A stretch of 64,000 bases of DNA from Armatimonadota bacterium (GTDB lineage: Bacteria > Armatimonadota > SYMT01), in contig JAWLHY010000012.1 in NCBI GenBank assembly GCA_041690135.1, forward strand, positions 160,001 through 224,000. Direction: 5' to 3'. Positions 10,068 through 58,760 of the stretch are shown piece by piece. The stretch's first letter is position 1. The number at the start of each line of letters is the position of its first letter. The translations under genes and the position numbers were made by a program. The notes under the pieces were generated by a model. It searched no databases, had not been told where the DNA came from, and was given only the letters and a program-made list of their open reading frames with translations.

Positions 10068-13000
10068 ATGAAGGCGCCAGCCAGGCCGAAAGTACCAGCG
10101 CCTGCGGGTGGCACCCTCCTAGCGTGGCAACGGCAAGTGGCGGAACTGAACCGCGAGATCCAACAGATCAAGCAGTGGCAACAGCAGCCCGGCACGGTCT
10201 ACGGCACCGCCCAGCGAATGATTGAAGCGCGGATCACCCGCATGAGCCTGCTGAAGCAGCGGATCGAGGAAGCGAAGCGCGGGGTTCGCACGCCGCCCAC
10301 CCATCCCCAATCGGTGGAGCGGCGGAGCGCGCAGGCAAAGCAAGCCATGGCGCGGTCCGCGGCCCACCGGCGCGCAAAGAATGCTTTCAACGCCACGGTG
10401 CCGATCGACCTGATCCGCCTGGAAGCGGAGCGGGAGAGCCCTCTGACCCAGCAGGTCGCGAGTGGTCTGGCGGGAGTGGTGGGTGCGGACCCCTACCAGG
10501 ACGAGTCGCGGGCCATTCTCCGCAAGCGGCAGCAGAAGGGCACGGCGCCGACCCTACGAGTCCAGCCCGCAGAGGTGGGCCAGATCCAGGCCCTGCGGCC
10601 CTATGTGGAGGACTTCCTGAACGCCACGCGCCGGGATTACCACACGCTGCGGAAGCAGGGGATCACGCCGCTTTCCGTGGACCGGCTGCGCGCGTATCTC
10701 CAGCAGGAATATGCGGGTCGCCGGAAGCTGACGGCGGCGCAGGAACGGGCGTTGCCGGGCATCCTCGCCGGGCTGCAAGTGCGGTGGGACGAGCGGGTGC
10801 GCGGCGCCAAGCGCGTAGGCGCCCGCCTGGCGGAGAATGCCGTCGGCGTGGCGACCGGCGGAGCGGGCCTCTTGCCGCGCGCGGCGGCGGCGGCCAGCGC
10901 GGGGATCGTCGCGCAGGCGTTCGTCGATACGAACCATCCGGAACTGACCGCGGCGGAACGGCTCCAGTCGGCCGGCACGGCGGGTCTGTTTTCGGCCGGT
11001 GCGGAGGGTCTCGGCGCCGCGTGGCAGGCAGCGCGCAAGGTGAAGAGCCCCACGGTCTCCCCGGGACCGGTATCGCCGCACCCGGTACCCGGGGCGCCAC
11101 ACTCCGCAAAGCCGGGGCCCGCCGGAGGGCCGTTCGCGGAAGCGAAGCCGGGGAACTCCCTTCCGGCAAAGGCTCCCTCTCCCGGCCCGGCTCCCCGGCC
11201 CCGCCCGGGAACGCGCGTGACGGTGAAGACGCCCCGCGGCGCCCGGATTACCGGGGAGGTCACCCGCTCCTCGCCGGACGGTCGGACGGTGTACGTGCGG
11301 AACTCCGCCACGGGTAAGGAGGTGCCGGCCAGGGTACCGCCAAAAGGCGCACCAGGCGTGCCCCAGAAGGGCGCGCCCGCGACACCCTCGAAAGCCCCTG
11401 CGAATCCGAAGCAGCCGGCGGTAGGCGGTCCCCAGCCTACTCCGGCACCGCAGCAGGCGTCTCCGGCCGCGAAGCCACCGTACCCGCCGGTGCCCGCGCG
11501 CCCCGCGGAACCCCCGGCCGTTACCGGATGGTCGGAGCCTACTCCCGCTTCGCAGGGAACCTTGACCACGGCGCAGCATGGGGGACACCCCGGCGACGAA
11601 CGCCCGCCTGGCAAAGCAGACGGCGAACGACGTGGCCGGGGCCGCCCCGGCTCCCCGCAGCCGGCCGGAGGGGGCACCGGGTAACCGCAGTGCTCCGGCG
11701 TCACCGGGCGCCACCGGCAACCGGAAACCGGGTACCGCACCGGACGCGACGGGCAACCCGAAACCCGCTACCGCACCGGACCCGGTGGAAGCACGGTCGG
11801 GCCAGCGCGGCGATACACCCCCCGCGGTGCCGGAGGCGCCGGTGACCCGGGGAGGCCCGGAACCGGAAGGGGTCCCGGCGAAAGCGACCGGATCTCGTCG
11901 GCGCCGTCCGGTGGAAGGGATGCACGACTCCGCCCTGACGGGAACGGCGGCCACCGCCACGACGCGCGCCGCCGCGCGCGCCACCGGGCGGACGGCACCG
12001 GGAATCCCCACCGGCACGCCCGTGGCCACCCCTACGGGCGGGAGCATGGCCTCCCCCGGCGGGCCACCTTCCCCCGGCGGAACACCCCCCACGGGGGGAC
12101 CGCCCCGCGGCGCGCCACCCGGTGCCCCCGGACAACCGCAACCGAGAACCACTACCGCCCCCGCGCAGCAGCCGGGGGCGGTCGGCGTTTCTGGCTCCGC
12201 GGGAGGGAGCAAAACCCCCACGTCCCAGAGCCAGGGAAGGCCTCCGGGACTCACCCCGGGTGGCCCCCCATCGGGGCCGCTTCGCCAGGCGGAGGTCGAG
12301 GAGGACATCCGCGACGTACTGGCGCGGCTCCGGAGCGGCGGCCGGAAAAGCAACGAGAACGGCGCCTTCACCCGCGCGGGGGATGAGCAGCGGCTGAGAG
12401 ACCTCCGGCAGGAGCGGCAGGACCTGGTGCGCGGCCGGGGCGGGCGGTACCGGGTGGGGGAGCCGGTGGTCGGCACCCGGCACAACGGGACAAGGGAGGC
12501 GCTGGTCTACGACGGGATGGCCAGCGACACGCACGCCTACGTGAGAGACCCCAGGACGGGACGGCGGCGTTCGGGAACGGTGCCGGTCGAGCGCCTGCGG
12601 ATACCAGCACCCGGTGTCCCCAACAGCCGTCGTGCAAAGCTTCATGCCCACTTGGATGCAGCGGAAGCCGCCGCCCGGCAGAAGTTGAGTGCGCTCCGGG
12701 CTTCGCGCCGGGGCGGGAAACTCGCTGCCGGGCTTGGCGGCTTTAGTGACCTGCTGGAGGAAGCACCGCACTGGATCGAGATCGGCGCGGTGCAGATGGC
12801 ACGTGGACTGCTCGAGTTCGACGCCTGGTCGCGCCGGATGCTGGAGGAGTTGGGGGACGAACTGCGGGCCACGGGGCGGAACGTGGATGAATTACTCCGG
12901 GAGATCTGGGGTCTCTCACGAAGAGTACATGGTGAAGAAACACATAGCCGTGGCAAACAAACGTCCGATCTGATTCTAGGGAAGAAGAGCCTCGCGTTCA

Positions 13001-13526
13001 CGCCCGCCGAAAGGGAATTAAAGCCGCTTCACTGAAGCCTAAGAGCAAGAAGGGTGCTGCCAACTACCTCAAAGCCGCGGAGGAGCGTGAGTATCCAGAT
13101 AGCGCTGCCTTCCCTTGGGGAGAGGGTGATTTTAAGGTGTGGTTCGACAGTGCGAATATGGAAACTTTCGTGGCGGCATGGACTGATAAGACCGTTAGAC
13201 TAGCTATCGAACGGCGGATCCGCCACCCCGGAGGTCTCCACGAATGGTTGATGACCGCACGGGCAGACAAATTCAAGGAGTGGGGTATGTCTATTGCGCT
13301 GATTCATGAGCTACGTACCCGCATAGTAGATGTGGAGTGGGTTAATCCATCTGGGCGCCACGGTGGAAAGGGTTCGGGGCGAGCTCACAGGGAAATCTTA
13401 AAGCTGATCGACGCCAGTGCGACCTATGGCGAGTATGTAGTTGCTTTGAACAAGTGGGCCGACAGTCGCCTTAAGGGTGGTCGGACTGCATTGCCTGATG
13501 GACTTCAGATTGTGGAGGGGAGATGA
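10068..13526 (+). pseudogene. Polymorphic giant protein A, broken into three frames (10068-11684, 11578-13035, ~12948-13526); His-rich putative nuclease-type toxin tip
   Basis: N-part is paralogous to D (RMIEARITRMSLLKQRIEEA / AGVVGADP). Carries the shared linker and shared domain. Tip reads RHPGGLHEWL...GRHGGKGSGRAHREIL...LPDGL. Confidence 0.7.
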
Positions 13527-14203
13527 CGGAGAGTAAGCTATACGAATTCTGGCAATCCGTTGTGGGCGTAGACGAAGATGAGAGTTGGTCTGAACCAGCC
13601 GACTTGGTCTTCCTTTTCCAGAATTTTCGTCCCCATGGTCAAGGAGTAGAGAGGATTCTCAATGGTTTTTGGGGAGCGAGGCAAATGCTTCCGCGATTGC
13701 TGGAAGTATACAAAGCCACTGCCTCAGGATGGGATGCGCGTCCAGTTGCATTTGATTACTTCCTAGTGACTGAACCTACGCACATCGATGACTCCCGCGT
13801 AGAGGAGTTAATCAGGAGCTACCTGGACAAGATGAAGCGTATGGCCGAAGAGATCAACTACAGGCAGACTGCGTCGAATCTATCGGTTGTTGAGCGAGTG
13901 CAGATCGTCCGGGCGCAAGATGCACCCCACTCATTGGATTTGAGCAGAACCGAGGACTTGCTTTATGCAATGCAGAGTGACTTTTTCAGCTTGACGCCGA
14001 GCCAACCCAGTGAACTGTGGTTGCTGGAACCCGCGTTGTATTCGATGGCCAATGATAACCCGCTTACGTACCATCTGCTCTGGCCCTTGAAGGCGAAAGG
14101 CAGTAGTGTAGAAGAACCGTTTCTACCCTACTTCGAACTTTGGAAACATGCAGTAACCCTCAGGTTGGATGCTGATCGGGCAACCGCTTATATTCCGGCA
14201 TGA
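13523..14203 (+). CDS. Putative immunity protein for tip A
   Basis: ATGA-coupled to the tip ORF, lower GC than its surroundings, 226 aa, no recognised motif. Confidence 0.6.
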   Translation: MTESKLYEFWQSVVGVDEDESWSEPADLVFLFQNFRPHGQGVERILNGFWGARQMLPRLLEVYKATASGWDARPVAFDYFLVTEPTHIDDSRVEELIRSYLDKMKRMAEEINYRQTASNLSVVERVQIVRAQDAPHSLDLSRTEDLLYAMQSDFFSLTPSQPSELWLLEPALYSMANDNPLTYHLLWPLKAKGSSVEEPFLPYFELWKHAVTLRLDADRATAYIPA

Positions 14204-14259
14204 CGAACACAAGCATGGAGGGTGCCGAAACAAGTAGCCGGATCCATTTCTGGATGAGG

Positions 14260-14475
14260 TCGTGGGTCGGGCTGTCGGCACCCGCACTGGGACAACCGCG
14301 GCCACGACACTGGCCGGAAGCGTCGGCTCACCCGCCGGGGGAGCCCCGGCAGGCGGAGCACCCCCCACGGGGGGACCGCCCCGCGACGCGCCGCCCGGTG
14401 ACTCCGGACAACCGCAACCGAGAACTACCACCGCCCCCGCGCAACAGCCGGGGGCGGTCAGCGTTTCTGGGTCCG
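14260..14475 (+). repeat. Orphan linker remnant with hairpin (GGAPPTGGPPR...[11 protein letters not shown])
   Basis: DNA similar to 12040-12195, 55880-55990 and 58520-58660. Confidence 0.85.
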
Positions 14476-14502
14476 GCTCGGGGGCGTCGACGGCCGGGAG
14501 GA

Positions 14503-14588: not shown

Positions 14589-14592
14589 ACCG

Positions 14593-15315: not shown

Positions 15316-15337
15316 GCCTACCGGAAAGGGGGTGGGG

Positions 15338-19582: not shown

Positions 19583-20515
19583 ATGAGACAACGGTTGTTG
19601 GGGACAGTCCGGGAAAGCAACGGGCTGGAAGGTAGCGACGGCCTGGCGGGGTGGTACCAGCCGGTGGGGTCGTATTACCTGGTCCGGTTCCTCGAAGCGG
19701 AGACGGAGAGCGCGGGGGGCATTGCGCTGCCGGAGACGGCGCTGCCGGACGTGCAGAGCGCGCTGGTGCTGGCACACGGTTCCGGTCCGGTGCTGGCGAA
19801 CGGGCGGCGGTACCCGATGCAGGGCGCCGTGGGGGACGTGGTGGTGAGCCAGTCGTTCCGGTTCGAACGGATGGACGGGCAGGCGTTTCTCGCGGATGAG
19901 AGCCTGGTGGCGCTCCAACGGTGGGATGGCGAGGGGCATGGGGCGCTGCAGGCCGCGGGGGACTGGGTGCTGGTGCGGCCGGATGGAGCGAAGCAGGTGG
20001 ATGCGGAGACGCGCGCGACGGTGCAGGCGCGGGAGAGCGGCGTGCTGGTGGCCTGCGCGAGCGTGGGCGGCGGGCACCTGCGGGAGCAGCAGCGCGGCGA
20101 CGAGATCGTCCGGGAACTGGAGGCGCTGGTCCGGACCGAGGCGTTCCGGCAGCAGCCGAGCGAGTTCTATCGCCACCGCATGATCCACGACTACCTGGAC
20201 GGCCTGTGCCAGTGGGAACTGCAGGCGCTGGGGACGGCCCTGAAGCGGAAGGGCGAGACAAACTGGCGCCACTACGTGCCGCCGCGGCCCCTGGCCCGTG
20301 CGAGTGCGGGCGTGGTGGTGAGCGTGGGGCCGGGCCGGGTGCTGCGAGACGGCACCCGCCGACCACCGGGGGTGCGGCCGGGTGACCGGGTGCATTTCGA
20401 TCGGCAGTTCCAGGCGGTGGCGCTGTTGTCGGAAGGGGACAGTCTCTGGGCCGTGCGGGAGCAGTTCCTGGCGGCCGTCGAGGTGACGGAGGAGAAGACG
20501 AATGCAGGGTCCTGA
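19583..20515 (+). CDS. Tandem double GroES/Cpn10-like co-chaperonin
   Basis: Domain 1: QPVGSYYLVR..EAETESAGGIALP...VLAHGSG...GDVV. Domain 2: LQAAGDWVLVRP...GVVVSVGPGR...VRPGDRVHF. Confidence 0.85.
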   Translation: MRQRLLGTVRESNGLEGSDGLAGWYQPVGSYYLVRFLEAETESAGGIALPETALPDVQSALVLAHGSGPVLANGRRYPMQGAVGDVVVSQSFRFERMDGQAFLADESLVALQRWDGEGHGALQAAGDWVLVRPDGAKQVDAETRATVQARESGVLVACASVGGGHLREQQRGDEIVRELEALVRTEAFRQQPSEFYRHRMIHDYLDGLCQWELQALGTALKRKGETNWRHYVPPRPLARASAGVVVSVGPGRVLRDGTRRPPGVRPGDRVHFDRQFQAVALLSEGDSLWAVREQFLAAVEVTEEKTNAGS

Positions 20516-22802
20516 GAGTTTATTCCCCCCGGAGGAGCGGTTTCCGGGCGCGGATCCGCGGAACCCATGGTCCGCGCAGCCGGGGCAGCCGGCGAACCTG
20601 ACCGGCGAGGCGCCGGGGTGGCCAGCGTCACCGGACGAGGAAGATGAAGACGAAGAAGCGGGGACTCCGGGCGGAGAGGAAGCGAGCCCGGCGCCCCCGG
20701 AACTGGGGCGGCTGGCGGAGACGGTGGACTACACCGTGCGGCTTTCCGAAGCGGCCCGGAGGCGGTTGGGAACGCAGATCTGCCGCGAGATCGAGCGGTA
20801 CGAGGCGGCGGTGCAGTCGCGGAAAGAGCTGCTGCAGGAGTGGCGGCGGGATTACGAGATGGTCCCCTCGGCCGGTCCGGAGCCGTGGGACCATGCCAGC
20901 TCCCTGCGGGCGCCGTTCGCGCGGGTGGCGGCCGACCAGCATGCCACGCGGTTGAACAGCCAGATCGTGCAGGCCGATCCCCCCTTCGCGGCGAGAGCCC
21001 GGACGCCCGAGGCGGTTGAACGCGCCCCGGCGATCGAGGAAGCCCTGGCGGCGATCCTGGAGGAGGCCAACTGGAAGGACGTGGCCCGGGAAGTGCACCG
21101 GGAGATCACGGCGGGGGCTGCCTGCCTGGTGTGCGTGACGTACGCGCGCAAGACTGCCCGCGTGCCGCGCCTGAAGGTGAACTTCGACGAGCAGAGCTTC
21201 GCCCGGCGGGTCCGCGGCGGCACGCCCGTGGAAGAGGCCTTCCGGGGAGCCGTGGAGTCGCGGCGGGACGGTACGCCCCGGGTACGGCTGGAGTTCGAAG
21301 ACACGGTGACCTACGACGGGGTGAAGCTCTCGTGCGTGCCGTGGGAGGACCTGATCGTGCTGCCCGTGAACGCCACCGACCCGGAGCACATCTGGGGCAT
21401 CGGCGAGCGGGTGCGGCTCCGCGGCTTCGACCTGCGGGAAGGCGAACGGGAAGGGCGTTATCTCAAGAATGCAGTGGAAGAACTCCTCCGCTCCCCCGGC
21501 GACAGCCCCGACGCGGACGACGTGGAAGACACCGAGGAATTCAGCGCGGTCGAGCTGGAGGACGGCGCGTATGAAGATTCTCTGTACCGGGAATACGACT
21601 GCGCCGAGCTGTGCTGGTACGACGACCTGGACGGCGACGGGTTCCAGGAATGGTACCTGGTGACGGTCCACCTCCCCACCGGGAAGGTCCTTCGGGCGCA
21701 GTACTCGCCCTACGAGCACGGTCGTCCCTACTACGTACTGTTCAACTACCTGCCCCGGTCGCGCCAGCTCTTCGGCCAGGGGGTGATCGAACTGCTGGCG
21801 ACCACCCAGGACGGCGCCACGGCCACCATCAACAACTTCAACGACCTGGTCTCGCTGCTGGTGGCGATGGCGGGGTCGTTCTTCGTGGACGAAGACAGCG
21901 GCATCGAGCCGGAGCGGTTCGTGTTCGCGCCGGGCCGGCCCGTGAAGTGCCAGGACCCGCAGCGGACCATCCTGCCGATGCCGGTGGCGCAGAACATTCC
22001 CGTCGCCCTGCAGGCCTGCCTCCAGGCGCTGGAGATGTACAAGACCTGGGCGGACCTGCTGACGGCGACCTCCAACCCGGTGGTGGGCCGGGAGACGGCG
22101 GGCCAGCACACGCTGGGCGAGCTGCGGATGGTGGTGGGCAACGCGATGGCCGTGTTCGAGGACAAGGCCGCCGGCGTGGCCCTGACGTGGGCCAAAGTGT
22201 GGGACCTGGTCCGCTGGACGGTGGCCCAGTACGCCGAGCACGGCCAGGTGCGGTACCGGAAGACGGCGCGGCCGGGGGAGGCCCCCGAGTTCAAGGCGGT
22301 GGACGCCGAGTTGCTGAAGGCAGAGATCGATCTCTCTCCGGCCGGCCTCGCCGAGTGGGCGGACGCCCAGGCGCGGGTGGCCCGGAACATGTTCGTGAAC
22401 GGCCTGCTGCTGCAGGACCCGCAACTGGCGACCGTGCCGGACGTGAAGCTGACGCTGCTGGAACAGACCCTGCGCGACGTGAAGCACCCCCGCGCGGAAC
22501 GGCTGCTGGAGATCATCCGGCAGGCCCTGGCGCAGCAGCAGCAGATGCAGCAGCAAATGCAGCAGATGCAGGCGCTAATGCAGGCGGCTGCGCCTCCCGG
22601 TCTCACCACGGAGAACGCGGAGGAAGGAACCCAATCAACCGCGGAGACGCAGAGGACGCTGAGGGGACGCGGAGAGGTAGGAAGAGAGGGACGGGACCAT
22701 TCGCACGCCCATGCTAACCAGTTGAGAGCGCAACTTGCGGAAGGAGATGCTGAAAGTACGCACGGAGCGGCTGGTAGGAGTGGCAGCCTGGCTCCCAGGT
22801 AG
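20502..22802 (+). CDS. Portal protein (P22-like size and position)
   Basis: 766 aa after the terminase; PY..F.Y.P.....G.GV.ELL...QD, ETAG..T.GE motifs and Q-rich tail typical of podovirus portals. Confidence 0.8.
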   Translation: MQGPESLFPPEERFPGADPRNPWSAQPGQPANLTGEAPGWPASPDEEDEDEEAGTPGGEEASPAPPELGRLAETVDYTVRLSEAARRRLGTQICREIERYEAAVQSRKELLQEWRRDYEMVPSAGPEPWDHASSLRAPFARVAADQHATRLNSQIVQADPPFAARARTPEAVERAPAIEEALAAILEEANWKDVAREVHREITAGAACLVCVTYARKTARVPRLKVNFDEQSFARRVRGGTPVEEAFRGAVESRRDGTPRVRLEFEDTVTYDGVKLSCVPWEDLIVLPVNATDPEHIWGIGERVRLRGFDLREGEREGRYLKNAVEELLRSPGDSPDADDVEDTEEFSAVELEDGAYEDSLYREYDCAELCWYDDLDGDGFQEWYLVTVHLPTGKVLRAQYSPYEHGRPYYVLFNYLPRSRQLFGQGVIELLATTQDGATATINNFNDLVSLLVAMAGSFFVDEDSGIEPERFVFAPGRPVKCQDPQRTILPMPVAQNIPVALQACLQALEMYKTWADLLTATSNPVVGRETAGQHTLGELRMVVGNAMAVFEDKAAGVALTWAKVWDLVRWTVAQYAEHGQVRYRKTARPGEAPEFKAVDAELLKAEIDLSPAGLAEWADAQARVARNMFVNGLLLQDPQLATVPDVKLTLLEQTLRDVKHPRAERLLEIIRQALAQQQQMQQQMQQMQALMQAAAPPGLTTENAEEGTQSTAETQRTLRGRGEVGREGRDHSHAHANQLRAQLAEGDAESTHGAAGRSGSLAPR

Positions 22803-22833: not shown

Positions 22834-22861
22834 GGGCTGGGGGTATCCCCCGGCCCTTTTT
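22834..22861 (+). terminator. Intrinsic terminator after portal
   Basis: gggctggggg-tat-cccccggccc followed by TTTTT. Confidence 0.7.
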
Positions 22862-22898
22862 GTTGGACCGGCGAAACGGCGGCATGGGGAAGGGTGTG

Positions 22899-25800
22899 AT
22901 GATGAGAGACGGGAGCGGAAACACAGGTGCAGCAGGAGGGACAGCCTTTCACACAACCAGCCCATATGCGGGATCGATACGGAAGTATGAGCAGGAGCTG
23001 GCGCGGCTGGAGCGGAAGTCCGCCGAGTGGAAAGGGGTGATGAGCGACCCGACGCAGCCGCCCGGACGGCAGAAGGCGCTGTTCGGGAGGCTGCAGGGGA
23101 GTGAGGCGTCGGGCCGGCCGGCGCCGGGGACGGTGAACGCGCGGGCCTTGCGGCTGCGGGCGCAGATCGACGCGTTGAAGCTGGCCGAGCGCGTGTACCA
23201 GGCCGACCCGACGACCGAGACCCGGCGGCGGCTGGACACCTATCTGAACCGGGGAGCCCGGATCCGGGACGAGCGGGACTGGGTGTGGAACGAACGGAAG
23301 GCCCTCCGGACGGTACAGCAGGAAGTGGAGAAGCTGCAGGGCCTGCCGGGTTTCGGCAACGCGCAGACGCAGTATGCGGCCCGATATAACGCCTATTTGA
23401 AGCGCGGCGGCGCGCTGCGGGCGCTGGAAGGGCAGCACGAGGCGGAGCGGAAGACATTCCAGAATTACCAGCCCAAGCCGGCGCCTACCGCACCTCCGTT
23501 CGGCTCCAGGCGTACCCCTAGCCGGACGGAGCCGCCGCAGCCGGGGGTAATTCCCGCCGGGTTCGTTCCAACCCAAAACAGCAAGCCGACCACGACCCCG
23601 CCCGTGAAACCCCGCCCCGGTGCGTCGCGAGGCCGGGCGTTCAACCCGTTTAGCTACAACGTGTACGGTCATCAGCCGGATTTCGGCGAATGGGCGGGCC
23701 AGCAGGCGGTCAAGGGGATCGAGAGCATTGGGCGGGTCCTGGGGTTTGGCGGCACGATCGACGCTTCCAAGCTGCCCAGCAAACAGTACGCCGAGCTCTA
23801 CCCACCGGTGTATCTCTCCGAGGACGACCAACAGTTGGCCCGGGAACTGGCGGAGATCGGGCAACTGCGGCCCCACGTTGCGGGGGTGATCTCTCCCTTT
23901 GTGAAGGCCTACCGGTCGGAACTCGGGCGGCTCCCGCGTACAACGCAAATGCTCATTCAAGCTCAAGCGGCGGCAGGAGTCGGTGCGCCGGGCCCCTCGG
24001 CGGAGGAACTTCGGAAGGCCGTACCGCAGGAGGTCTACGATCAGCGTTATGCGGAAGCCATCGCGCGCAGCCTGGGCGGAATGAACGAGCAGGGGCTGAT
24101 CGCTTCCTTTGAAGCCAAGCTGGGCCGGCCATTGACCTCGCTGCAGAAGAAGGCCGTGGGCGCCATCGCCGCCGCAGAACGCCTCAAGCTGTTGAACGAG
24201 GGGAACTACACCCAGGCGCTTTCCGGTGACCTCCGTAACGTAGTGATCAGCTATGCCGCGGGGGCGGGGGCGGGGCAGTTCTTGCGGTATCTCAAGGGGC
24301 CGGCGGCCGGACTGGCGCAGAAGCTGGGCACGCGGCTCCCGCCGAAGACCCAGGCGGCGATAACGACCCCACTGGGCAAAACGTCCACCCAGGCGCAGCG
24401 GCTGACCGAGCCGGTCCGGAGGAAGGTCCCGCCCGTGGTGCGGGAAGCGCTGATCAAGACGCTGGACCCGGTGGAGCATACGGCCGCGGGGGTGTCCGAA
24501 GCGGCAATCCAGGCGTTTGAAGTGGCCTCCGACCCCCACCTGACCTCCGGCCAGCGAGCGGAAGCGCTGCAACGGGCGTTTGTGGAAGGGGCGAAGGCCA
24601 ACCTGGGCTTCGAAGCGATGCTCCAGGGGGTGCTCCTGGGCCGGCACGTCTGGCGTGGAAGAGGCAAGGTGGGTGGCGCCGACCTGTCGCGCCTGCGGGA
24701 CCAGGTGGCCAAGGATTTCCGCACCCTCGAGCCCCAGTTGGAAGTCGATCCGGAGGCGCTCGACCGGATGTCCGGAGTACCCGGCCTGGGGAAAGCCTAC
24801 GCGATCGTCCGAAGGGGCCAGGCTAAAGGCGCCAGGTTCGGCGTGGTGGAGGGGTATGGGATCGTGGAGATCGGGGCCGAGCAAAACGGCCGCGTGTTTG
24901 TGCGTGCCGTGGCCCAGCCCAGACAGCGGTTCGAAGTGCCCGCGGACCGCCTGCACGAACTCACGCTGCCGAAGCCACCCGTCGGCACGCGCCCACCCGC
25001 ACCCGCCGGAGCACCTACAGGGAAGCCGGATACCAGCCGGAGGACTCGCCCGCAGGGGGCGCCTCCCACGGTAAAGCCTGCAACGGTACCCCAGACAGCG
25101 GGCAACCCGAAGCCGGGCCCGAACGCGTCGATGCACCCACCGAACTCCATGGCGGGAGCCCCGAAACCGGGAGAAGGCCCGGCAGGAGGAGGCAAGAAAA
25201 CACCCGCAGAGAAGACAGGTGTCCCCTGGTCCGCCAAGCCCGTTGATGCGGGCACCGGCGAGGGGCACGGGGGGCACGGGGATCCCGGCGCCAGCCATGC
25301 GCCGCAGGGGATGGAACCGCCTGGGGACGGCCTCCCGCAAACCGTGCGGACCGCAGTGGCGGAACCCCCCTCCGGCCCAGGCAAGACGAGGAACGGTAGA
25401 GCGACCCAAGACCCCACGCACTCGCCTGGAAATGGGGCTCCCGATCCGCGTGCGGATTACTCCGCCACCCAATCCAGGAGTACGGTAGTAGATGACGGTG
25501 CCGGCTCCAGGAAGAGTGCAGAGGGTCCGGTTGGCGGCAAACCCGGACGCGACGGGGGAGCCGGTACCGGCTCCGGTCCGGACAGCCGCAGGAAACCGTA
25601 CGGCCGGAGTGGCTCCACCAGCTCTTCTGGGACACCGCCCCCCGGAGGCGCTCCGGCGGGAGGGCCGCCGCCCAATGCTGGAGGTGCTCCGCCGGGAGGG
25701 CCACCACCCAATGCCGGAAATACCGGCCGGTCAGCCCCGAAACCCACCACCGCCCCCGCGCAACAGCCGGGGGCGGTCGGCGTTTCTGGGCCAGGTCGAG

Positions 25801-27203: not shown

Positions 27204-27257
27204 CTGTCGGCCAGAGTTTTGCACGGCACGTTTTTGACACGGAAGGAGAAGATCTCA

Positions 27258-27527
27258 ATGGAAAAGGACTTGAAGAGGCAGGAGCTTCCTTGGGACTATC
27301 AGTGTCGCTTCTGCGTACACTTTGATAAGGAGAATCCTCATAAATTGCGATGTGATGCGTTCCCTGATGGGATACCTCTGGAGATCGCCCATAACGTTGT
27401 AGACCATCGACTTGCCTTCCCAGGAGACAACGGCATCCGTTATGTATCGATTCCGGGAAAGCGGAAGTCACCCTTTATTGAGGATGAGGAGATGAGCGAA
27501 GTGAGGCAGATTGAGCAAAATCGTTGA
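27258..27527 (+). CDS. Small Cys-rich protein, putative immunity for tip B
   Basis: CRFCVHF...CDAFPDGIP.EI.....DH....PGDNGIRY; paralog of 29059-29466. Confidence 0.7.
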   Translation: MEKDLKRQELPWDYQCRFCVHFDKENPHKLRCDAFPDGIPLEIAHNVVDHRLAFPGDNGIRYVSIPGKRKSPFIEDEEMSEVRQIEQNR

Positions 27528-27599
27528 TTAAATACTAAAGGGTATGGTCGCTCACCCAGTAGACTCCTGCGAATCCGGGCTGTATCTGCAGACTGGATC

Positions 27600-29056: not shown

Positions 29057-29058
29057 GC

Positions 29059-29466
29059 ATGGCCGTATTTGCACCTAGTTGTTTGGATTGCATCCACTTC
29101 CACCCCGGCAGTAAGGCCAGGATCCGGACCGGCACCTGTAATGCATTTCCGGACGGCATTCCCTCGCGCATTGCTTCGGGAGTGGATCCGCACGAGCAAC
29201 CGCATCCCGGCGACCACGGGATCCAGTTTGAGCCAAATGAGCGTGTCCGGGAGTCCCGTGCACGGGAGGCGAAGCGGGAAGTAGAATTCCAGCAAATGCG
29301 GGAGCAGATGCATGCACTGGCCCGTAACCTGGCGGACGAGCCGGAGGAAGTCTTGCAGGAGGCTTTCAACCGTCAAACGGACGAATGGGGAGTCCGACGC
29401 GTGAGTGCCAAGGGGTATCGTGACACGGGTCGATTTATAGTCTCTTCAAGAGATCTGGACTTCTGA
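29059..29466 (+). CDS. Cys-rich putative immunity protein, paralog 2
   Basis: CLDCIHF...CNAFPDGIP..I..G.D.H..P.PGDHGIQFE; strong RBS (GAGGAGG). Confidence 0.7.
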   Translation: MAVFAPSCLDCIHFHPGSKARIRTGTCNAFPDGIPSRIASGVDPHEQPHPGDHGIQFEPNERVRESRAREAKREVEFQQMREQMHALARNLADEPEEVLQEAFNRQTDEWGVRRVSAKGYRDTGRFIVSSRDLDF

Positions 29467-35045: not shown

Positions 35046-35081
35046 GTCTCCGGGAGAGACGAGAAGCGAGGAGGAAGGCCG

Positions 35082-52381: not shown

Positions 52382-55300
52382 ATGGCACTCACTCCGGAAG
52401 AACTCGCGGCCCAGGACCTCGCCCAGGTCCTGGGCCGTTCGCGCATGTCTGGCTCCGACCCGCACGCCCGTCTTGTTACCATCGCCGCGAAGCGGTATGG
52501 GGTGGATGAGGACCTGATCCGCAGGGTTATTCGGCAGGAATCGGGCGGGAATCCCCGCGCTGTCTCCCCGGCCGGCGCTCAGGGTCTCATGCAGTTGATG
52601 CCGGCAACGGCAAAGAGCCTGGGAGTGCGGGATCCCTTCAATCCGGCCGAGAACATTGACGCGGGGGTGCGGTATCTCCGCCAGCAGTTGGATGCATTCG
52701 GCGGCGACGAGCGCCTGGCGCTGGCCGCCTATAACGCGGGGCCAGGGAACGTCCGGAAATATGGTGGGGTGCCCCCGTTCCCGGAAACCCGGCAGTATGT
52801 CGCCCGGATCACCCGCGGCCGGACCGGTGGCCGGATGAGTTCGCGCGGCGGCACGGCGCATCTGACCCCGGAGCAGCTCGCCGCCCAGGACCTGGCGCGG
52901 GTCACCGGCGCGAAGGCCGGTGGTAAGACAGGCACGCTCACGCCCGAGCAGTTGGCCGAGCAGGATCTGGCAAGTGTGCTCGGCCCGGATCCGGTGATGG
53001 AGGCCATCCAGCGCCGCAAGCGCGGCGTGCGGCTCGGCAATCTGGCTCCCACACCGCAGCCGGCCGCGAAACCGGCGCCCAAGGTCGATCTCGCCGGAAT
53101 GCGTCGCCGGGTGCAAGAGCTGGAGAGCACGATCAACGGTCTCCGCCAGCAGCGGGACGCGCTGCCCCCAAACGCCCCGTCCGGACCCCTGCGCCGGCTG
53201 ATTGCCCAGCGCATCTCCGAGATGACCCTGCTGCAGCAGCAGATCGAGGAGGCAGAGACCGGGAAGGCCCTGCCGCTGATGCACCCGGACTCCGTCGCCC
53301 ACCGCCGGCTGCGGGCGGAGCGCGCGCAGAAGCAGGCCGCGGCGCCACCGAAGCGCCCCGTCGATTTCGTGCGGATGCAACCGGTCCGGACCGAGACCCC
53401 GGTAGAACAGGTGCGCAACTTCGTGGCAGGGGTGATCGGCGCCGACCCCAGCCGGGCGCAGTCGCGTGAGATGGTGGACACGCGTGCCGCACGCGCCGGG
53501 CGCCCCCCGTTCCAGGCGACGGACGCCGAACTGCTGGAACTCCAGGCGCTGGAGCCGGCGATGGAAAGATACCTCCAGTTCAGCCGGGGCCGGGGCACGA
53601 ACACCCAGGTGGTGGGGGACGTGGTGATCCCCCAGCCGGAAGATCCCCATTACCGACAGCAGGGATATTCCCAGCCTTACACCGAGGCGGATTTCCGGAA
53701 CTTCCTGCGGCGCGAGGTGTTCGGCGCCAAGGGCCGGTTGACGCCGGTCCAGGAAGCGGCGCTTCCCTACCTGGTGGAAGCCCTGCGGGTGCGGGCGGAT
53801 GAGCGGCAGCGCGGGATTGTGCGGACCAGTTCCCGGTTGGCCGATATCGCGGTAGGGCTAATGACCGGCGGCTCTGGATCCGTGGCCCAGATGGGCCTCA
53901 AGGGCTTCCTGCTCGACCAGGGGAGGCGTCGCGCGATTTCCGGCGGCAGTGCTGCGGCCTCGCGCCTGACCGCGGATGCGGCGAACCCGGATTTGACCGT
54001 GGAGCAGCGGCTGAAGGGGGCAGCCAGCGACGCCGCGCTGGCGATGGGCGTGGACACCCTGACTTCGACCGACCCCATCGTGCGTGACCTGGCGCGTGGG
54101 CGCAAGAACCTCGGGCCGGGGGCCGGGTTTGGCGAGGCGCTGGAGCGCGGGCAGGAGATTACCCGACGGCACGGCGCCCAGAAGCAGGCGAAGGCGCAGC
54201 GGCTGGCGGCGGAAAGGGCAGGGACGACTACGTCTGCGCCTGCTCCATCCCCAATGGCCGCTCCGGAAGCCACAAAGCCAGTGCCATCGGCAGGGATGGA
54301 ATCGATCCCCACCCCCGCTCCCACCATTGGGTCTCGGGTGGTGGTGCGTTGGGAGGACGGATCCACCCTGGAAGGGGAGATTCTCCGCCTCTCCAAGACA
54401 GGCAAGTCCGCTTACATCCGCGGCAGCGATGGCAAGGATCTGGACAAGCCGGTGTTGCTCAAGGACCTGGAGCTTGCCCCGGCTACCGCGGGCAGTGGCC
54501 CTTCCGCGGGTCCGGCGCCAGCCCAGGCGCTAAAAACAGAGGCATCTGGCACTCCCAGCCCCGACAACGATCTTTACTCGGGTCCGTATCCAATCCGCAA
54601 GCGGTCAGGACTCTCGCCGCAAGAACGTGCCGGGGAGGCCCAACGCGCGCAGTACGTCCAGGAGCATATGGATGAACTGGTAGAGGCCTACTACCGTGCA
54701 AATGAAGGTGGGCGGGTCATCAGCTCAGATCGCGCGAAGTGGTTGTTCGCGGAATACCAAGATGAAGCCACGCGCACCGCAGTAGACCGGGAAATCTATT
54801 CTGCCGCGAAAGCCGTCTCGGACGAGGTATTCCGTCGCAAGGTGGCGGAACCAGCCGCCCCAGGACAAAAGGACCTCGTCATTTTCCTCTCCGGCGGACC
54901 GGGTTCCGGAAAGTCGAGTTCGATCAGCGGGTCGCCCGCGGTGCAGGCCGCACACAGCAATGCTCGTCTGGTAGTTGACGGTACCCTTTCCGATATTGAG
55001 GCGGCCCGTCAAATGATGCGGGCCGTAGATGCGCGTAAGAGCAAGCGCATGCTGATCTACGTGTATCTGCCTGCGGATGAAGCGGTCCGCCGGGCAGTCG
55101 ATCGCGCGATGGATGTAAAGGGACCGGACTATTTGCGGGCCGTAAACCTAGAGAACCTCGCTACAGCTCACTACGGAGCCCAGAATACGGTGCTCCGCTT
55201 GGCGGACGAGTTCCCTGACCTTGCAATTGCAATTCTTGACAACCGTGGTCAGCAGGGGCAAGTCGCCGAACTGAGTTTGGACGAACTACGCCAACTCAGG

Positions 55301-57754
55301 TATCGTAATGTGGAAGACGTAAAGGCGCAAGTCCGAGCCGCTTATGATGCGGAATACACCCGACGACAAGGAACAGCAGATGCCATCCCCGACTCCCTCC
55401 ACCGCGGGTTCACGGGTTCTTACGCCCGAAATGCAACAGGAACTCGAGATCTTCAAGGAAAACCTCAATCAGGTCCGGAAGGAAGCGGCGGAAAGGCAGC
55501 GCCAGAAGATGGAAACCTCCCGGACGACCCCGGCGACCCCGGAACTGGCGGAGTAGGCCCCCGCCCCCCTGCCCCTCCTAGCGGCGGTCCGGCCGCTCCC
55601 TCTGCCATACCTCCTCGAGAGAACGACCCCTCTTCCCCAACACCCACCACGTCTGACGGTGGAGCGGCTACCCCCGATCGTAGAAACACCACCGGGCTGG
55701 CCAACCAGGTGCAGGAGGGGGAGGTGGAGCTCGGGATCATCGCGCCCCCGGAGAAGGGGGTGAGCGCCGGGGCGCAAGAGGCCCATGCCGAGGGGAAGCG
55801 CCTGGTGGAGGCCGGCGGGAAGCCACTCCCGCGCCGCGCTCCGGCAGGGGCTTCCGGAGAGACGCCCTTCGGGGATCTTCCTCCCGCAGGAGGCCCACCC
55901 CGCGGAGCGCCGCCCGGTGACTCCGGACAACCAAACTCGAAAACCTCAACCGCCCCCGCGCAACAGCCGGGGGCGGTTAGATTTTCTGGACCCGGCGGGA
56001 GGAGGATCCCCACCGCACCCAGGCAGGGGACGGGCGCGAGGACCGCTCCGCCCGCTTCTGCGCCGGCCGTGCCCAACCAGCAGGAGGTGGAGCGGGAGAT
56101 TGATGTGGTCGTGGAGCGGCTCAAGAGCGGCGGCCGGAAAGGCAACGCGAGCCGGTCCTTCACCCGTGCGGGGGATGAACAGCGGCTGCAGGACCTCCGG
56201 CAGGAGCGGCAGGACCTGGTGCGCGGCCGGGGCGGGCGGTTCCGGGTCGGGGAGCCGGTAGTCGGCACCCAACACAACGGAAAGAAGGAGGCGCTGGTCT
56301 ACGACGGGATGGCCAGCGACACGCACGCGTACGTGAAGGACCCCCGAACGGGGAAGCGCCGGGCGGGCACGGTGCCGGTCGGGAGCCTCCAAAGAACCCG
56401 ATCAGCCCCACCTCAGTCGGATATGGTCGGCGTGCGAAGGACTGCTGAGGGCCAGACTCTACGGGTTCCAGGTTCTGGGGCTCCGGTAGGCCGGCGAGCA
56501 GATCTCCACGCCCGATTGGATGTGGCGGAAGCCACCGCCCGGCAGAAGCTGGCTGCGCTCCGGGCCTCGCGCCGGGGCGGGAAGCTCGCGTCGGAATTGG
56601 GCGGCTTCAACGACCTGCTGGAGGAGGCCTCGCACTGGATCGAGATCGGCGCGGTGCAGATGGCACGGGGGCTCGTGGACTTCGAAGCTTGGTCGCGCCG
56701 GATGCTGGAGGCGGTGGGGGACGAACTGCGGGCCACGGGGCGGAACGTGGATGAATTACTCCGGGAGATCTGGAACGCATCACGAAAGAAGTATGCGGAA
56801 GAGCGGCGGAGTAATCCTGCAGAAGGGCCGGAGAACGTTGAGCCGGATCATAAGCTAGATTTGGCGGTTGGAACGAAAGGTGAGTCGCAGGACTCGGCTC
56901 ACCCACTCCAGTTCAAAACCAAACCCGCCACAGCCGCAAGTGGCGAAGGTCGCCGCAGTCCATCCTCACAGCGCCGGGGAAGCGGAGGGGTTCATGATGC
57001 GTGGAGACAACCAGGCATGCCCAGAGTCCGCTGGAATTGGTCTGGTATTAAGGGGGCAATGCAGTCCGATCGAATCAACGAAGACACTCTGCTCGCTGCA
57101 GTCGAGGACTGGCGCAATAGTATGGAGCTGGATTTCTCGCGGATGGAGATTCGTCTACTTCCGCAGGAAGCGAAGCGCCGTCCCCATCTAGATCTTAGCG
57201 CAGATGTGATCAACGATAACCCTGTCTATGTGCACGGCTTTGTCAACGCAAGGAGCCCGCATGCAATCCATCTCTACAATCCCACCTCGGAATGGCCGGA
57301 CATTCGACAGGATATGCTGCGTGATCTCTATCGTGCACATGGGCGTGGCCTATTGTCTCCTCAAGACTTCCTTGACTTCGTGCGTGAAGCTCCGCGATTA
57401 GCCGAGGAATATATTGCGGGAACTCTGAAGCATGAAACGGGACACTCGCTTCTGGTCGAAACCTTCGGGAATCACCGCCGGCGGAGGTTCAAAGGTTGGC
57501 AGCGACTCATGCCCGATCATCTGTATGGTGTGATGGTAAGTGCGCTGAAGCTGGCTGGGACGAAGACTGACAATGATGCGATTGCAGATTCTATTGCGGA
57601 AGCGGTTGCAGAAGACGTGCGCCGGTGGCATACTGGCTATTATAGCCCTCTCAATAGTCAGACCTGGTTGGCCGATGCGGCCGATCCACATGGAGCTTGG
57701 GAACGTGCAGAGGAGGTATGGAAATGGCTGAAAAACGCTCACGACCGGCGGTAG
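52382..57754 (+). CDS. Giant polyvalent ejection protein D: SLT lytic transglycosylase + zeta-toxin-like P-loop + shared domain + zincin tip
   Basis: [25 protein letters not shown]...ALAAYNAG (SLT); [12 protein letters not shown]...VVDGT (zeta-like); LKHETGH...SIAEAVAE (zincin). Confidence 0.85.
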
Positions 57755-57945: not shown

Positions 57946-58192
57946 GTGGCCTTGGCGATGATGTCTGGCTGAGATTTCGATGGACATTCATCCCAAGAGC
58001 AACCCACGTGAAAGGTCGAATGAGGCTTTGACGACCCCTGCCCTCAGCCGAATCTTCGACGCAGCGGTTCACTTTGGCGCAGGTGACGTCGTTATCGAGG
58101 AGGACCCCGAGGCCACGTCCTTTCCGAAACAGGTGGGCGGCGTAGACGTCGCCTACTGATCCCTGCGAAAGCGTGCCGTCACCAGATTCCAT

Positions 58193-58230
58193 AAGCCGCC
58201 CCAGGGAGTTTTCCCTCGGGCGGCTTTTTT
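58193..58230 (+). terminator. Intrinsic terminator
   Basis: aagccgccc...gggcggctttttt. Confidence 0.75.
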
Positions 58231-58239
58231 TCGCGTACC

Positions 58240-58760
58240 CAGAGGCGACCCCTCGCCGGACGCCGGGTGACGCTCCGGAACCGGATACTGAGCGAGGGCG
58301 TCGCCGGGAAGAACCCGGAAACGGGCAGCACACACAAGAGCCGGAAGGGGTCCCGGCGAAAGCAACCGGAGCTCGCCCACGCCCGGTGGAAGGGACGGAC
58401 GAGACTTCCCTGACGGGAACTGTGGCCACCGCCACGACCCGGGCCGCGCGGAACGCCGCCCGGACCGCCTCCGGTACCCAGACGACTACGGCCTCGCCTT
58501 TGGGCGGGAACGTGGACACCCCCGGTGGGTCAGCCCCGGCAGGTGGAGCACCCCCCACGGGGGAAGCCACCCCGCGGCGCGCCGCCCGGCGGCCCCGGAC
58601 AATCGCAACCGAATACCACCACCGCCCCCGCGCAAAAGCCGGGGGCGGTCCGCGTTTCTGGCTCGGGAACACCGGAAGACACTCGGGGGTTCGGGCCGCC
58701 GGAGAGGAAGCCGCAGCGGGTTCCCTGTCCCAGCGGGTTCCAGCACCGGTACCACAGATA
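58240..58760 (+). pseudogene. Orphan linker remnant with hairpin
   Basis: EPEGVPAKATG..RPVEG...LTGT.ATATTRAA duplicates ~11860-11990; hairpin at 58621-58649. Confidence 0.75.

Follow-up and report, generated by a model that had tools for sequence, protein, structure and literature searches.

A translated hairpin unit at the module boundaries of virion proteins in an Armatimonadota prophage

The prophage, its carrier proteins and the eight core copies

The window analyzed here, 64,000 nucleotides of contig JAWLHY010000012.1 from an Armatimonadota bacterium, contains a podovirus-like prophage at approximately 9.2-59.8 kb, and the setting is not a secretion-system toxin locus. Searches with Pfam and PHROGs detected no secretion-system domain (Rhs/YD, TPS, LXG, PAAR and similar), the matches being instead to a portal neighbour, SLT and internal-virion-protein families; Pfam likewise gave no MuF domain for the element. 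Four long open reading frames (ORFs A to D) carry a 29-bp hairpin, referred to below, with its conserved tail, as the core, together with shared modules (X and Y) and variable C-terminal tips. The relevant genes are as follows.

11578..13035, forward strand: ORF A (485 aa), with a Pro/Gly-rich N-terminal part, the core, module X and module Y
13137..14203, forward strand: two small low-GC ORFs 3' of A (13137-13526 and 13523-14203)
20502..22802, forward strand: SU10-type portal protein (Pfam, PHROGs), which marks the element as a phage
22860..27203, forward strand: ORF B (1447 aa), directly 3' of the portal gene, with a carrier part, linker, core, module X and a low-GC tip containing an HExxH string
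27219..27527, forward strand: small ORF 3' of B (phrog_33375), 81 nt upstream of core o1
27563..28459, forward strand: open frame of orphan o1, a D2-type C-terminal module without a carrier
28460..29466, forward strand: two small ORFs 3' of orphan o1 (28460-29056; 29059-29466, phrog_33375)
29522..31600, forward strand: ORF C (692 aa), with 167 aa of B-type linker, the core, module X and a low-GC tip with DUF3626
31626..31916, forward strand: small ORF 3' of C, 80 nt upstream of core o2
52382..57754, forward strand: ORF D (1790 aa), with SLT (E 2.2e-31), a Zeta-toxin-like P-loop domain (Zeta_toxin, E 1.2e-7), linker, core, modules X and Y, and a low-GC tip containing an HExxH string

ORF C is a copy of B truncated at its 5' end and furnished with a different tip, and every tip is trailed by small ORFs that match no known family. 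A previous sequence-only reading had described the carriers as toxin genes, a label that is too narrow: they are phage virion multi-domain proteins of the polyvalent type. Such proteins of phages and conjugative elements are treated in the passages of Iyer et al. 2017 (PMC5512222) drawn on here, which also describe cassette-like small ORFs beside some of them; the text of Jamet et al. 2017 (PMC5576092) deals with polymorphic toxins of the MuF type in temperate phages. As in these accounts, the carriers are large multi-domain proteins encoded in late operons near the portal gene and presumably packaged and injected, in which lytic transglycosylase, P-loop kinase-like and metallopeptidase-like parts are combined; several unrelated enzymatic domains occur per virion polypeptide (e.g., SLT and Zeta in D, DUF3626 in C). 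The difference lies in the junction, since no nucleic-acid hairpin at domain boundaries is described in these sources as consulted: the word "hairpin" has no match in the text of Jamet et al. and refers only to protein beta-hairpins in the passages of Iyer et al.

The eight copies of the core are all direct repeats.

12142..12199, forward strand: core A, hairpin 12155-12181 followed by T-N5-TTTCTGG, in frame in ORF A
14418..14475, forward strand: core a2, a remnant preceded by 149 nt of A-type linker; similarity ends at +45, and the frame stops 38 codons past the T codon
25737..25794, forward strand: core B, in frame in the 1447-aa protein next after the portal
27609..27653, forward strand: core o1, starting a start-less orphan cassette, with no similarity upstream of stem base 0
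30008..30065, forward strand: core C, in frame in ORF C
31990..32041, forward strand: core o2, starting a short orphan whose frame is open to 32340; similarity to other copies begins at -7 to 0
55937..55994, forward strand: core D, in frame in the 1790-aa SLT and Zeta-domain virion protein; its tail GATTTTCTGG pairs with GAAAA upstream
58609..58666, forward strand: core d2, a remnant with frameshifted A/D-type linker upstream and orphan-type sequence downstream; the frame stops 46 codons past the T codon

The pattern CCGCCCCCG-N9-CGGGGGCGG was recovered exactly at all eight sites at which it had been reported, with stems starting at 12155, 14431, 25750, 27609, 30021, 31997, 55950 and 58622, and in none of 100 dinucleotide-preserving shuffles. 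These are the sole copies in the whole genome of 9,098,857 bases, as judged by the exact pattern and by an nhmmer profile (E<=0.01). The reported contrast between a constant stem and a variable loop also holds: 18 stem bases are identical in every copy (144/144 bases), whereas three of nine loop positions vary, and the loop base that gives K tracks the downstream sequence type in the eight-copy alignment. Beyond the stem, a T (8/8) is followed by five variable nucleotides and then by TTTCTG (8/8). The 29-bp palindrome sits in the middle of a longer unit, approximately 55 nt in length, comprising the hairpin, T, N5 and TTTCTG, with the usual form A-CCGCCCCCG-loop-CGGGGGCGG-T-N5-TTTCTGG, often preceded by GAAAC.

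Conservation of the unit as nucleic acid

The palindrome is open in all three frames. A single frame is used in all eight copies, reading T/S/N-A-P-A-Q-(Q/K)-P-G-A-V-x-(V/F)-S-(G/E) and running on into the long ORFs A, B, C and D, in agreement with the translation T.APAQ(Q/K)PGAV originally given for these four. The Rickettsia palindromic elements (RPEs) are likewise palindromic repeats translated in frame within protein-coding genes, but they are selfish insertions of 100-150 bp found genome-wide in unrelated genes. The present unit measures 55 nt and always lies at a module boundary; REP/RPE-like dispersal is not observed, as 8/8 copies are inside one prophage and none elsewhere in 9.1 Mb.

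The same frame is used in six metagenome contigs (L063-L068), giving 14/14 copies in total; these were retrieved with a search pattern that fixed the central 9 bp of the six copies and to which copies with other stems are invisible. None of the six aligns with the window over >=150 nt in blastn, the protein modules that they have in common are just 30-45% identical, and at least four of the six copies are embedded in long ORFs, which reach 1890 aa. The loop peptides vary among the six (AQK, EAS, EQT, EPQ, EMA and VQT), and two of the loops lengthen the helix. Covariation within the stem is weak, with double changes in 3/15 pairs and a score reached by 23/500 shuffles. One contig (L064) is an o1-type orphan behind homologs of 28460-29056 and 29059-29466, another (L068) carries a PBECR3 nuclease domain, and in L066 the Zeta domain is downstream of the unit rather than upstream as in D.

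A protein motif alone could in principle account for such a pattern, if T-A-P-x-x-x-P-G-A-V-x-V-S-G were a linker or a processing site (e.g., one cut by a head protease or by the HExxH tips) and the palindrome a by-product kept alike through gene conversion. The peptide is indeed conserved within a stretch predicted to be disordered (pLDDT <50, residues 9-39), in keeping with the position of the unit in a disordered Pro/Gly-rich linker of the polyvalent proteins, and two tips contain HExxH strings; in addition, autoproteolytic processing of polyvalent proteins is proposed in the passages of Iyer et al. (PMC5512222). However, the stem and the Ser TCT codon contain seven four-fold sites, all of which are invariant among paralogs A-D, as compared with 19/45 in the remaining alignment, where 26/45 vary. 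The tail retains GTT and TCT in 8/8 copies, codons that make up only 8.4% and 7% of prophage Val and Ser codons, respectively. Furthermore, the middle of the peptide varies freely with pairing kept or lengthened, untranslated orphans and remnants hold the unit intact, and a perfect palindrome of 9-10 bp is not expected under peptide constraint. The invariance of the synonymous stem sites together with the rare-codon tail therefore shows that the unit is conserved as nucleic acid and not as peptide, and a purely protein-level explanation is very unlikely.

The unit might alternatively be a functionless relic: a terminator from between two neighbouring genes, open by chance in one frame, would have been read through once those genes fused and would then have spread passively with its linker by duplication. 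The same arms with T-rich tails occur as ordinary non-coding, intergenic hairpins in unrelated genomes (27 cases), the palindrome imposes no stop in any frame, and polyvalent proteins enlarge by domain accretion according to the portions of PMC5512222 considered. Nevertheless, 55 functionless nucleotides should decay like their surroundings, whereas the unit is perfect in eight copies whose flanks are 74-92% alike (that is, differ by 8-26%) or unrelated, and it is kept in six contigs despite the divergence of their shared modules. This origin is accordingly improbable.

The unit as a joint between modules

Comparison of the flanks reveals a mosaic. As previously proposed, similarity between the cassettes near 27608 and 31997 starts at the hairpin: in the self-comparison, 27609-27900 matches 31997-32287 at 81%, beginning exactly at the first stem base, and orphans o1 and o2 have no common sequence upstream of stem base 0 and -7. 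In d2, upstream sequence of the A/D type (U1) is joined to downstream sequence of the orphan type (D2), with the switch between -11 and +13 and a loop that resembles a hybrid of the two parental types; in a2, U1 is joined to a unique downstream sequence. Three downstream types stand behind one core, and displaced forms are represented by the two orphans and the two remnants. Since the unit is the sole sequence that these upstream and downstream modules, different in all other respects, have in common, it is the place at which they were joined, exchanged and displaced, leaving start-less orphans and remnants downstream; two such orphans starting at the stem and a recombinant remnant identify it as a real exchange joint.

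The suggestion that the hairpin is the recombination point holds for four copies (27609, 31997, 58622 and 14431), with breakpoints near it in o1, o2 and d2 and at +45 in a2, but not for the youngest tip differences. Similarity between B and C extends from -530 to +502, and that between A and D from -70 to ~+754; it is after the common module X or X+Y that the low-GC "foreign" tips begin, and the drop in GC is not at the hairpin. The most recent tip replacements broke approximately 500-750 nt downstream. Logan contigs of a ~90% relative break at the hairpins and provide one joint between hairpins, 27659->32041, which has a 40-nt side and may be a paralog match.

Polymorphic toxins offer one parallel. 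Their junctions are marked by protein motifs such as PxxxxDPxGL in Rhs and VENN in CdiA. As far as the consulted parts of Zhang et al. 2012 (PMC3482391) describe such motifs and orphan arrays, both systems combine a constant delivery part, a short motif, a variable C-terminal module of lower GC and small downstream ORFs, and in both displaced start-less modules retaining the junction pile up downstream. In those toxins, however, the motif is conserved at the protein level and embedded in a long conserved coding region, whereas the present unit is a 55-nt hairpin with a varying peptide; the carriers are phage virion proteins in which Pfam and PHROGs showed no secretion delivery domain, and the low-GC tips begin only after a further shared module. 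Immunity functions are putative: the copies at 27609, 31997, 14431 and 58622 do follow a C-terminal module and small ORFs, as expected from the claim that copies lie downstream of tip-immunity pairs, but these small ORFs match no known family.

A dedicated site-specific system might also generate the mosaic, with the hairpin (as single-stranded DNA or a cruciform) plus TTTCTG serving as the target recognized and cleaved by a recombinase or an HUH-type nuclease, which would excise and insert hairpin-bounded cassettes in frame, similar to integron attC sites but for protein domains. Hairpin-plus-nick sites have the same architecture of arms, loop and asymmetric tail, and the conserved arms, variable loop and conserved asymmetric tail 5 nt off, the orphan boundaries at stem base 0 and -7, the hybrid-looking d2 loop and the constant frame in 14/14 copies would all be compatible with it. 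Yet no integrase, serine or tyrosine recombinase, HUH protein, transposase or reverse transcriptase was detected among the ~50 ORFs of the element (9.2-59.8 kb; Pfam, PHROGs), so that an insertion site in the site-specific sense, as once suggested, is unsupported, and the restriction of the unit to this element within the genome makes the involvement of a host enzyme with further targets unlikely. In addition, a2, d2 and C retain homology over 150-530 nt upstream, a feature typical of homologous rather than site-specific events, all copies are direct repeats, and the tail (GTTTCTG or GATTTTC) does not conform to the attC core-site consensus GTTRRRY. The element likewise differs from diversity-generating retroelements (DGRs), as neither a reverse transcriptase domain nor a template-like repeat with A-specific differences was found, the latter in the self-comparison. 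A dedicated enzyme is therefore an unlikely agent of the exchanges.

Terminator likeness and a combined reading

As RNA, the unit is predicted to form a hairpin of -20 to -44 kcal/mol with a stem of 9-14+ bp and an effective loop of 3-5 nt. The host has 876 other perfect hairpins of >=10 bp, and 24 of their 1752 tails also contain the word TTTCTG, as compared with ~1.8 expected from the genome frequency of the word, and some host hairpins have the same spaced TTTCTGG tail. Paired A/T flanks, in which an upstream A-tract mirrors the tail as it sometimes does in intrinsic terminators, are present in B (GAAAC..GTTTC), D (GAAAA..TTTTC) and L066 (CCCAGAAAC..GTTTCTGGG). On the other hand, TTTCT begins 2-6 nt past the stem behind a G/C-rich spacer, and the first 8 nt contain 3-4 U in 12/14 copies, as against mostly 5-7 in the ordinary terminators of the element; B and L066 have none, solely since the fold takes in the tail. 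A consensus terminator scan did not call the eight hairpins, save for a 5-pair sub-hairpin at copy D, and the tails of o1 and o2 are predicted to pair into a second hairpin. The unit appears to match the host's intrinsic terminators in anatomy, with a GC-rich stronger stem and a short, weaker U-tract set 2-5 G/C-rich bases off the stem, and differs from them in that half of the window copies are inside ORFs. The attenuator proposed from sequence alone is consistent with this anatomy but weakened by the poor U-tract. At least 11 ordinary terminators within co-directional operons of the prophage fit antitermination control, and d2 is not needed to end the D unit because the D cassette has its own ordinary terminator (T7, 58225-58231).

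A different RNA role can be envisaged, in which the hairpin would impose a transcriptional or translational pause for carrier folding or docking before the effector part, or act as an RNase III or stability element setting the mRNA 5'/3' ratio. A very stable hairpin exactly between structural and effector parts is suggestive in this respect, as is TTTCTG ending 11-12 nt past the stem, a spacing similar to that of hairpin-dependent pauses. However, such a role would account neither for the retention of the unit in start-less orphans and remnants nor for its position where mosaic flanks meet, and we consider it quite unlikely.

The closest known analogy may be the promoter-early stem-loops (PeSLs) of T4-type phages, mobile regulatory cassettes whose recombination shuffles the intervening modules and yields small circles, as described in the parts of Arbiol et al. 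2010 (PMC2839356) considered here. Both are short conserved repeats with a terminator-type stem-loop, scattered in a phage genome and bounding shuffled modules. PeSLs, however, are intergenic, include a promoter and bound whole genes, whereas the present unit has no promoter-like site at its cores, is translated in frame and bounds intragenic domains and displaced cassettes.

Taken together, the best reading, to which we assign a probability of about 50%, is that the unit serves two ends, as a conditional terminator compatible with an ORF and as a source of homology through which cassettes are exchanged in frame. As RNA, it would work conditionally, as an insulator or intrinsic terminator of the kind used by the host: where a carrier gene is being translated, the hairpin would be melted or overridden by the ribosome or by late antitermination, and before an untranslated displaced cassette it could fold and halt transcription. 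As DNA, its ~50 identical bases in a fixed frame would provide homology for in-frame exchange, possibly through hairpin-to-hairpin circles that are excised and then re-inserted in the manner of PeSL cassettes, and the GC-rich hairpin may favour template switching.

A hairpin translated in one reading frame

A conserved hairpin of terminator type forms the unit; it is translated, and it sits in a linker modeled as disordered (pLDDT <50, model residues 9-39). Its pattern, CCGCCCCCG-N9-CGGGGGCGG, matches eight times in the window and in none of 100 dinucleotide-preserving shuffles, which confirms all eight hairpins of the sequence-only reading. Four copies lie within long ORFs (the carriers A-D), two belong to start-less orphans (o1, o2), and two are remnants (a2, d2).

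Unit copies, carrier ORFs and the neighboring portal gene

12155 (A), 14431 (a2), 25750 (B), 27609 (o1), 30021 (C), 31997 (o2), 55950 (D), 58622 (d2), + strand: stem starts of the unit, exact pattern
11578-13035: ORF A, continuous with the unit frame
22860-27203: ORF B, continuous with the unit frame
29522-31600: ORF C, continuous with the unit frame
52382-57754: ORF D, continuous with the unit frame
20502-22802, + strand: SU10-type portal gene, directly preceding ORF B

Throughout the 9,098,857-base genome, both the exact pattern and an nhmmer profile of 14 cores (E<=0.01) recover only these eight copies, and no degenerate extra copies were found, including at the second 'APAQ' in D. An ungapped comparison of the eight agrees with the earlier description of a conserved stem and a varying loop: the 18 stem bases are identical in all copies, the loop varies at three of nine positions, and the stem is followed in 8/8 by T, five variable bases and TTTCTG. 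The predicted in-frame translation in A-D holds as well, and a single reading frame serves all eight copies, (T/S/N)-A-P-A-Q-(Q/K)-P-G-A-V-x-(V/F)-S-(G/E). This frame remains open for 283 further codons downstream of o1 (only ~15 upstream) and for ~114 further codons in o2; in the remnants it stops after 38 codons (14431) and 46 codons (58622).

Selection acts on the nucleic acid. Among A-D, none of the seven four-fold degenerate sites in the stem and in the Ser codon TCT varies, compared with 19 of 45 such sites being invariant elsewhere in the alignment. TCT represents 7% of Ser codons and GTT 8.4% of Val codons in the prophage genes; the unit tail carries TCT in 8/8 copies and GTT in 7/8. 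The conserved peptide would suit a rival explanation, that the unit is a purely peptide-level processing site, but the invariant degenerate sites point to the nucleotide level, and the loop peptide varies among metagenome copies (AQK, EAS, EQT, EPQ, EMA and VQT). Open frames running through the hairpin would likewise suit a functionless read-through relic, against which the same invariant sites and the identical stems argue. In a 14-sequence alignment, pairing holds in 87% of cells, versus 34-59% with partners slid. Double changes occur in only 3 of 15 pairs, with a score reached by 23 of 500 shuffles, and this covariation evidence is limited because the search pattern itself fixed 9 central bp in each of the six metagenome copies. 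Pairing changes are anecdotal: the outer pair -2/+28 (offsets from the first stem base, base 0) is T-A, C-G or A-T depending on the copy, B has GAAAC..GTTTC versus GAAAA..TTTTC in D, and metagenome contig L066 has CCCAGAAAC..GTTTCTGGG.

Modules joined and displaced at the unit

The unit is an exchange joint, at which phage virion protein modules have been joined and displaced, as seen in a mosaic of flanks derived from self-comparison of the window and protein alignment. Upstream, carriers A and D and remnants a2 (14431) and d2 (58622) have a Pro/Gly-rich linker in common, B and C have another, and o1 (27609) and o2 (31997) share nothing. Downstream, all four carriers have a module of ~115 aa (X), to which A and D add another one (Y); a distinct module (D2) occurs in o1, o2 and d2, and the sequence behind a2 is unique. 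Remnant d2 joins the A/D linker to D2, with its crossover placed between -11 and +13 because the loop base turning Q into K travels with D2.

The alignment of o1 to every other copy begins exactly at base 0, and that of o2 at -7 to 0, in line with the earlier observation that similarity between the cassettes at 27608 and 31997 starts at the hairpin. All 28 copy pairs have in common a segment that starts near -13 and ends somewhere from +39 to +55. Breakpoint mapping among the eight copies places the joints of o1, o2 and d2 at the unit, but others lie elsewhere: similarity of B to C (85%) extends from -530 to +502, with only the tips (low-GC C-terminal ends) differing, and that of A to D from -70 to ~+754. 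GC content is 0.67-0.78 in the carriers and X; it is low (0.52-0.56) in parts that start behind X or X+Y rather than at the hairpin.

The recombination or insertion site proposed from sequence survives as an exchange joint, on the strength of the flank mosaic, but no enzyme for it was recognised: among the element's genes there is no recognisable integrase, recombinase, transposase, reverse transcriptase or replication protein. A rival explanation invokes a dedicated hairpin-specific recombinase or nuclease acting at the unit, which would suit the joints of o1, o2 and d2 but finds no candidate in this gene content. Homologous exchange is the most economical explanation because no recombinase was recognised in the element and because a2, d2 and C each have 150-530 nt of additional homology. 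Such exchange could run through hairpin-to-hairpin circles, by analogy with the promoter-early stem-loop (PeSL) cassettes of T4-type phages, for which PMC2839356 shows such circles.

A Chi-like hotspot was ruled out (GTTTCTGG occurs 238 times versus 263-285 expected, 121 forward and 117 reverse), as was homopolymer phase variation in the window, where the sole run of at least 7 is T7 at 58225.

Phage setting and relatives

The region at ~9.2-59.8 kb is a prophage-like element with every gene on the + strand. In addition to the portal, it codes for a GH108 endolysin, a large-terminase match, a GroES-like protein, a capsid protein and two SU10-type adaptors, and it is bordered by host-like genes (to the left, PAS/GAF histidine kinases; to the right, LysR, oxidoreductase and sulfatase). 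Head, packaging, lysis and effector genes are present at 9200-59800, integrase, repressor and replication genes are not recognisable there, and host genes lie on both sides; this would suit either a prophage that has become defective or a particle producer that the host has domesticated. Carrier D (1790 aa) combines an N-terminal lytic transglycosylase, matching 'internal virion protein with endolysin domain', with a Zeta-toxin-like P-loop domain. Because of this gene setting (portal neighbor, lytic transglycosylase and Zeta-like domain), the carriers fit the multi-domain phage virion proteins termed polyvalent proteins in passages of Iyer et al. (PMC5512222), which also describe some of them as adjoined by cassette-like small ORFs. 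NCBIfam added nothing for tips or small ORFs.

Several other features were observed within the element. An 848-aa ORF (46992-49538), possibly a fiber or tail protein with repeated domains, contains 168-nt tandem repeats that are 74-75% alike (47481-48165). ORF 9723-11684 overlaps ORF A by 107 nt (11578-11684) in a different frame; either these are two distinct genes, or a frameshift may yield a longer form of carrier A. On two other contigs of the genome (C1:790080-790184 and C10:288256-288351), the initial 35 codons of ORF 9723-11684 (9726-9830) recur at 91-94% identity, and the region 9617-9834 is self-complementary; the left end of the prophage could thus hold a repeat element or an attachment site. 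In a soil metagenome run, summed contig depth at 16102-16768, toward the 3' end of the endolysin gene, is ~600, versus ~25 in neighboring bins, and this stretch is therefore common to many other sequences in that community.

A scan of a metagenome collection for stem-N9-stem-T-N5-TTTCTG yielded six contigs (L063-L068), none with a blastn alignment of at least 150 nt to the window and all with the unit in the same frame. The unit lies inside ORFs of L065 (1284 codons), L066 (1107), L067 (at least 330) and L068 (at least 1890). L064 is an orphan, in which homologs of 28460-29056 and 29059-29466/27219-27527 precede the unit and a D2-type module comes after; at L064 1930-3438, a DDE transposase gene comes next to the orphan cassette on its downstream side. 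In L063, a C9 run ~50 nt before the unit offsets the upstream 1098-codon frame, and this shift between carrier and hairpin may reflect slippage that acts as a switch, or an error of assembly. The contigs are phage-like, with a P22-type portal in L065, a Zeta domain in L066 and a PBECR3 nuclease in L068; the Zeta domain is downstream of the unit in L066 (35% identity to D residues 732-1053) and upstream in D. Two metagenome loops extend the helix (AGG-CTT-CCT and AG-ATGGC-CT), and the remaining ones keep two pairs after a one-base bulge, with an effective loop of 3-5 nt. Logan contigs from two metagenome studies contain a ~90% relative (soil metagenome run), whose contigs stop at hairpins, with the parts just behind at ~4x neighboring depth. 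Its 27659->32041 joint was not counted as a deletion, being ambiguous because o1 and o2 are paralogs.

Elsewhere, relatives were scarce. In IMG/VR, the arms alone found 50 single hairpins, none with the loop or the tail of the unit, and there were no matches for the flexible pattern with tail, the module X alignment or the portal. Neither the unit nor module X turned up in 7 further genomes, drawn from the family, order and class; among 400 genomes of the phylum, allowing up to 3 mismatches, only T-rich terminator-like look-alikes appeared, in 4 genomes, and the portal had a single match (26% identical), whose contig ends 1.9 kb later. Against 1.84 billion protein representatives, module X gave 2 weak matches and 4 strong ones (692, 1434, 467 and 1790 aa), the lengths of the latter being consistent with proteins encoded in the window itself. 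Foldseek (E<=0.001), PDB sequences and the Atlas all gave no match to module X; considered as a protease, it is not recognisable as one, the model showing two helices and a small beta unit (mean pLDDT 63). Orphan module D2 matches itself only.

Terminator likeness and biological meaning

Between the prophage genes lie at least 11 ordinary + strand hairpins, identified as consensus matches, with T-runs directly after the stem; total counts of such terminators are not above shuffles, and the listed sites have 6-9 G-C pairs in 7-13-pair stems.

Ordinary terminators

17482, 19537, 22834, 38321, 39459, 43126, 43972, 47039, + strand: ordinary terminator hairpins, consensus scan
35537-35628, + strand: three terminators in tandem, 35-nt period, GGCCGTC-TGTAGGG-GACGGCC followed by TTTTGTGTTGCTGG, just before the gene at 35682

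The intragenic attenuator suggested by the sequence-only reading is supported in part. The stem is strong (-20 to -44 kcal/mol versus -16 to -27 for ordinary terminators) and the TTTCTG tail is of host type, but there are fewer U in the 8 nt after the stem (3-4 versus mostly 5-7), and the terminator scan leaves the eight units uncalled, except for a 5-pair sub-hairpin at copy D. Outside the window, TTTCTG occurs in 24 of 1752 sixteen-base tails of 876 perfect host hairpins of at least 10 bp, with ~1.8 expected from genome frequency; the commonest T-rich tail word is TTTTTG (29 times), and several host hairpins have a 2-7-nt spacer ahead of TTTCTGG. The very stable hairpin would also suit a pause or processing signal, a rival explanation that does not account for the unit being kept in orphans and remnants or for its place at the joint of mosaic flanks. 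A scan of genome contigs found unit arms with T-rich tails in unrelated genomes, 27 times and always as one hairpin; at no site does the frame of the unit stay open far to either side at once. Two observations count against a simple 'cassette terminator' role: the D cassette is closed by its own ordinary terminator (T7 at 58225-58231) before d2, and the tails of o1 and o2 are predicted to pair into a second hairpin. Rfam gave no match at gathering scores. The unit RNA would act as a conditional terminator, masked by translation or late antitermination and active ahead of untranslated cassettes.

Other non-coding repeats were also noted. A ~200-nt element, found only in this prophage in three copies 81-92% alike (9250-9453; 14482-14588 + 15223-15318; 34861-35058), heads a block of co-directional genes at each copy, the second beginning 51 nt after a2. 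It contains several conserved stem-loops and a terminal hairpin followed by TTTCT/TTTTT, has no Rfam match, and may be a promoter-leader or antitermination RNA. The second copy is split by a 634-bp insert (14589-15222), absent from the ~90% relative in the soil metagenome run, where a contig joins 14588 directly to 15223. A 37-nt purine-rich intergenic motif (GATTAGGATGAGGATTACGATTAGGATAAGGAGG-like), ending in a Shine-Dalgarno-like AAGGAGG, occurs in the structural region at 19316-19352, 37530-37566, 37618-37654 and 39334-39370.

Secreted polymorphic toxins are known to form cassette arrays in which displaced orphans persist, and phage polyvalent proteins are suspected of varying in a cassette-like way; to our knowledge, the junctions described to date are protein motifs. 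For neither protein class do the passages retrieved by full-text literature searches mention a nucleic-acid hairpin where domains join. We rate cassette arrays at a conserved junction as known, and the junction as a translated terminator-type hairpin as new. That the unit is a dedicated hairpin-guided site for in-frame cassette exchange of effector domains delivered by the phage (an 'integron for protein domains'), with modules excised as circles and re-inserted at any copy with the frame restored, and displaced modules silenced by termination of untranslated transcripts, is unlikely, at a probability of roughly 0.15.

The unit offers a clean experimental system for whether translation masks an in-frame terminator. 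If it works as proposed, the phage would swap injected effector domains in frame with ~50 bases of homology, and it would become clear how silent spare modules stay switched off. The stem, loop and T-N5-TTTCTG in a fixed frame would then also serve as a tag for finding modules in sparsely sampled lineages.
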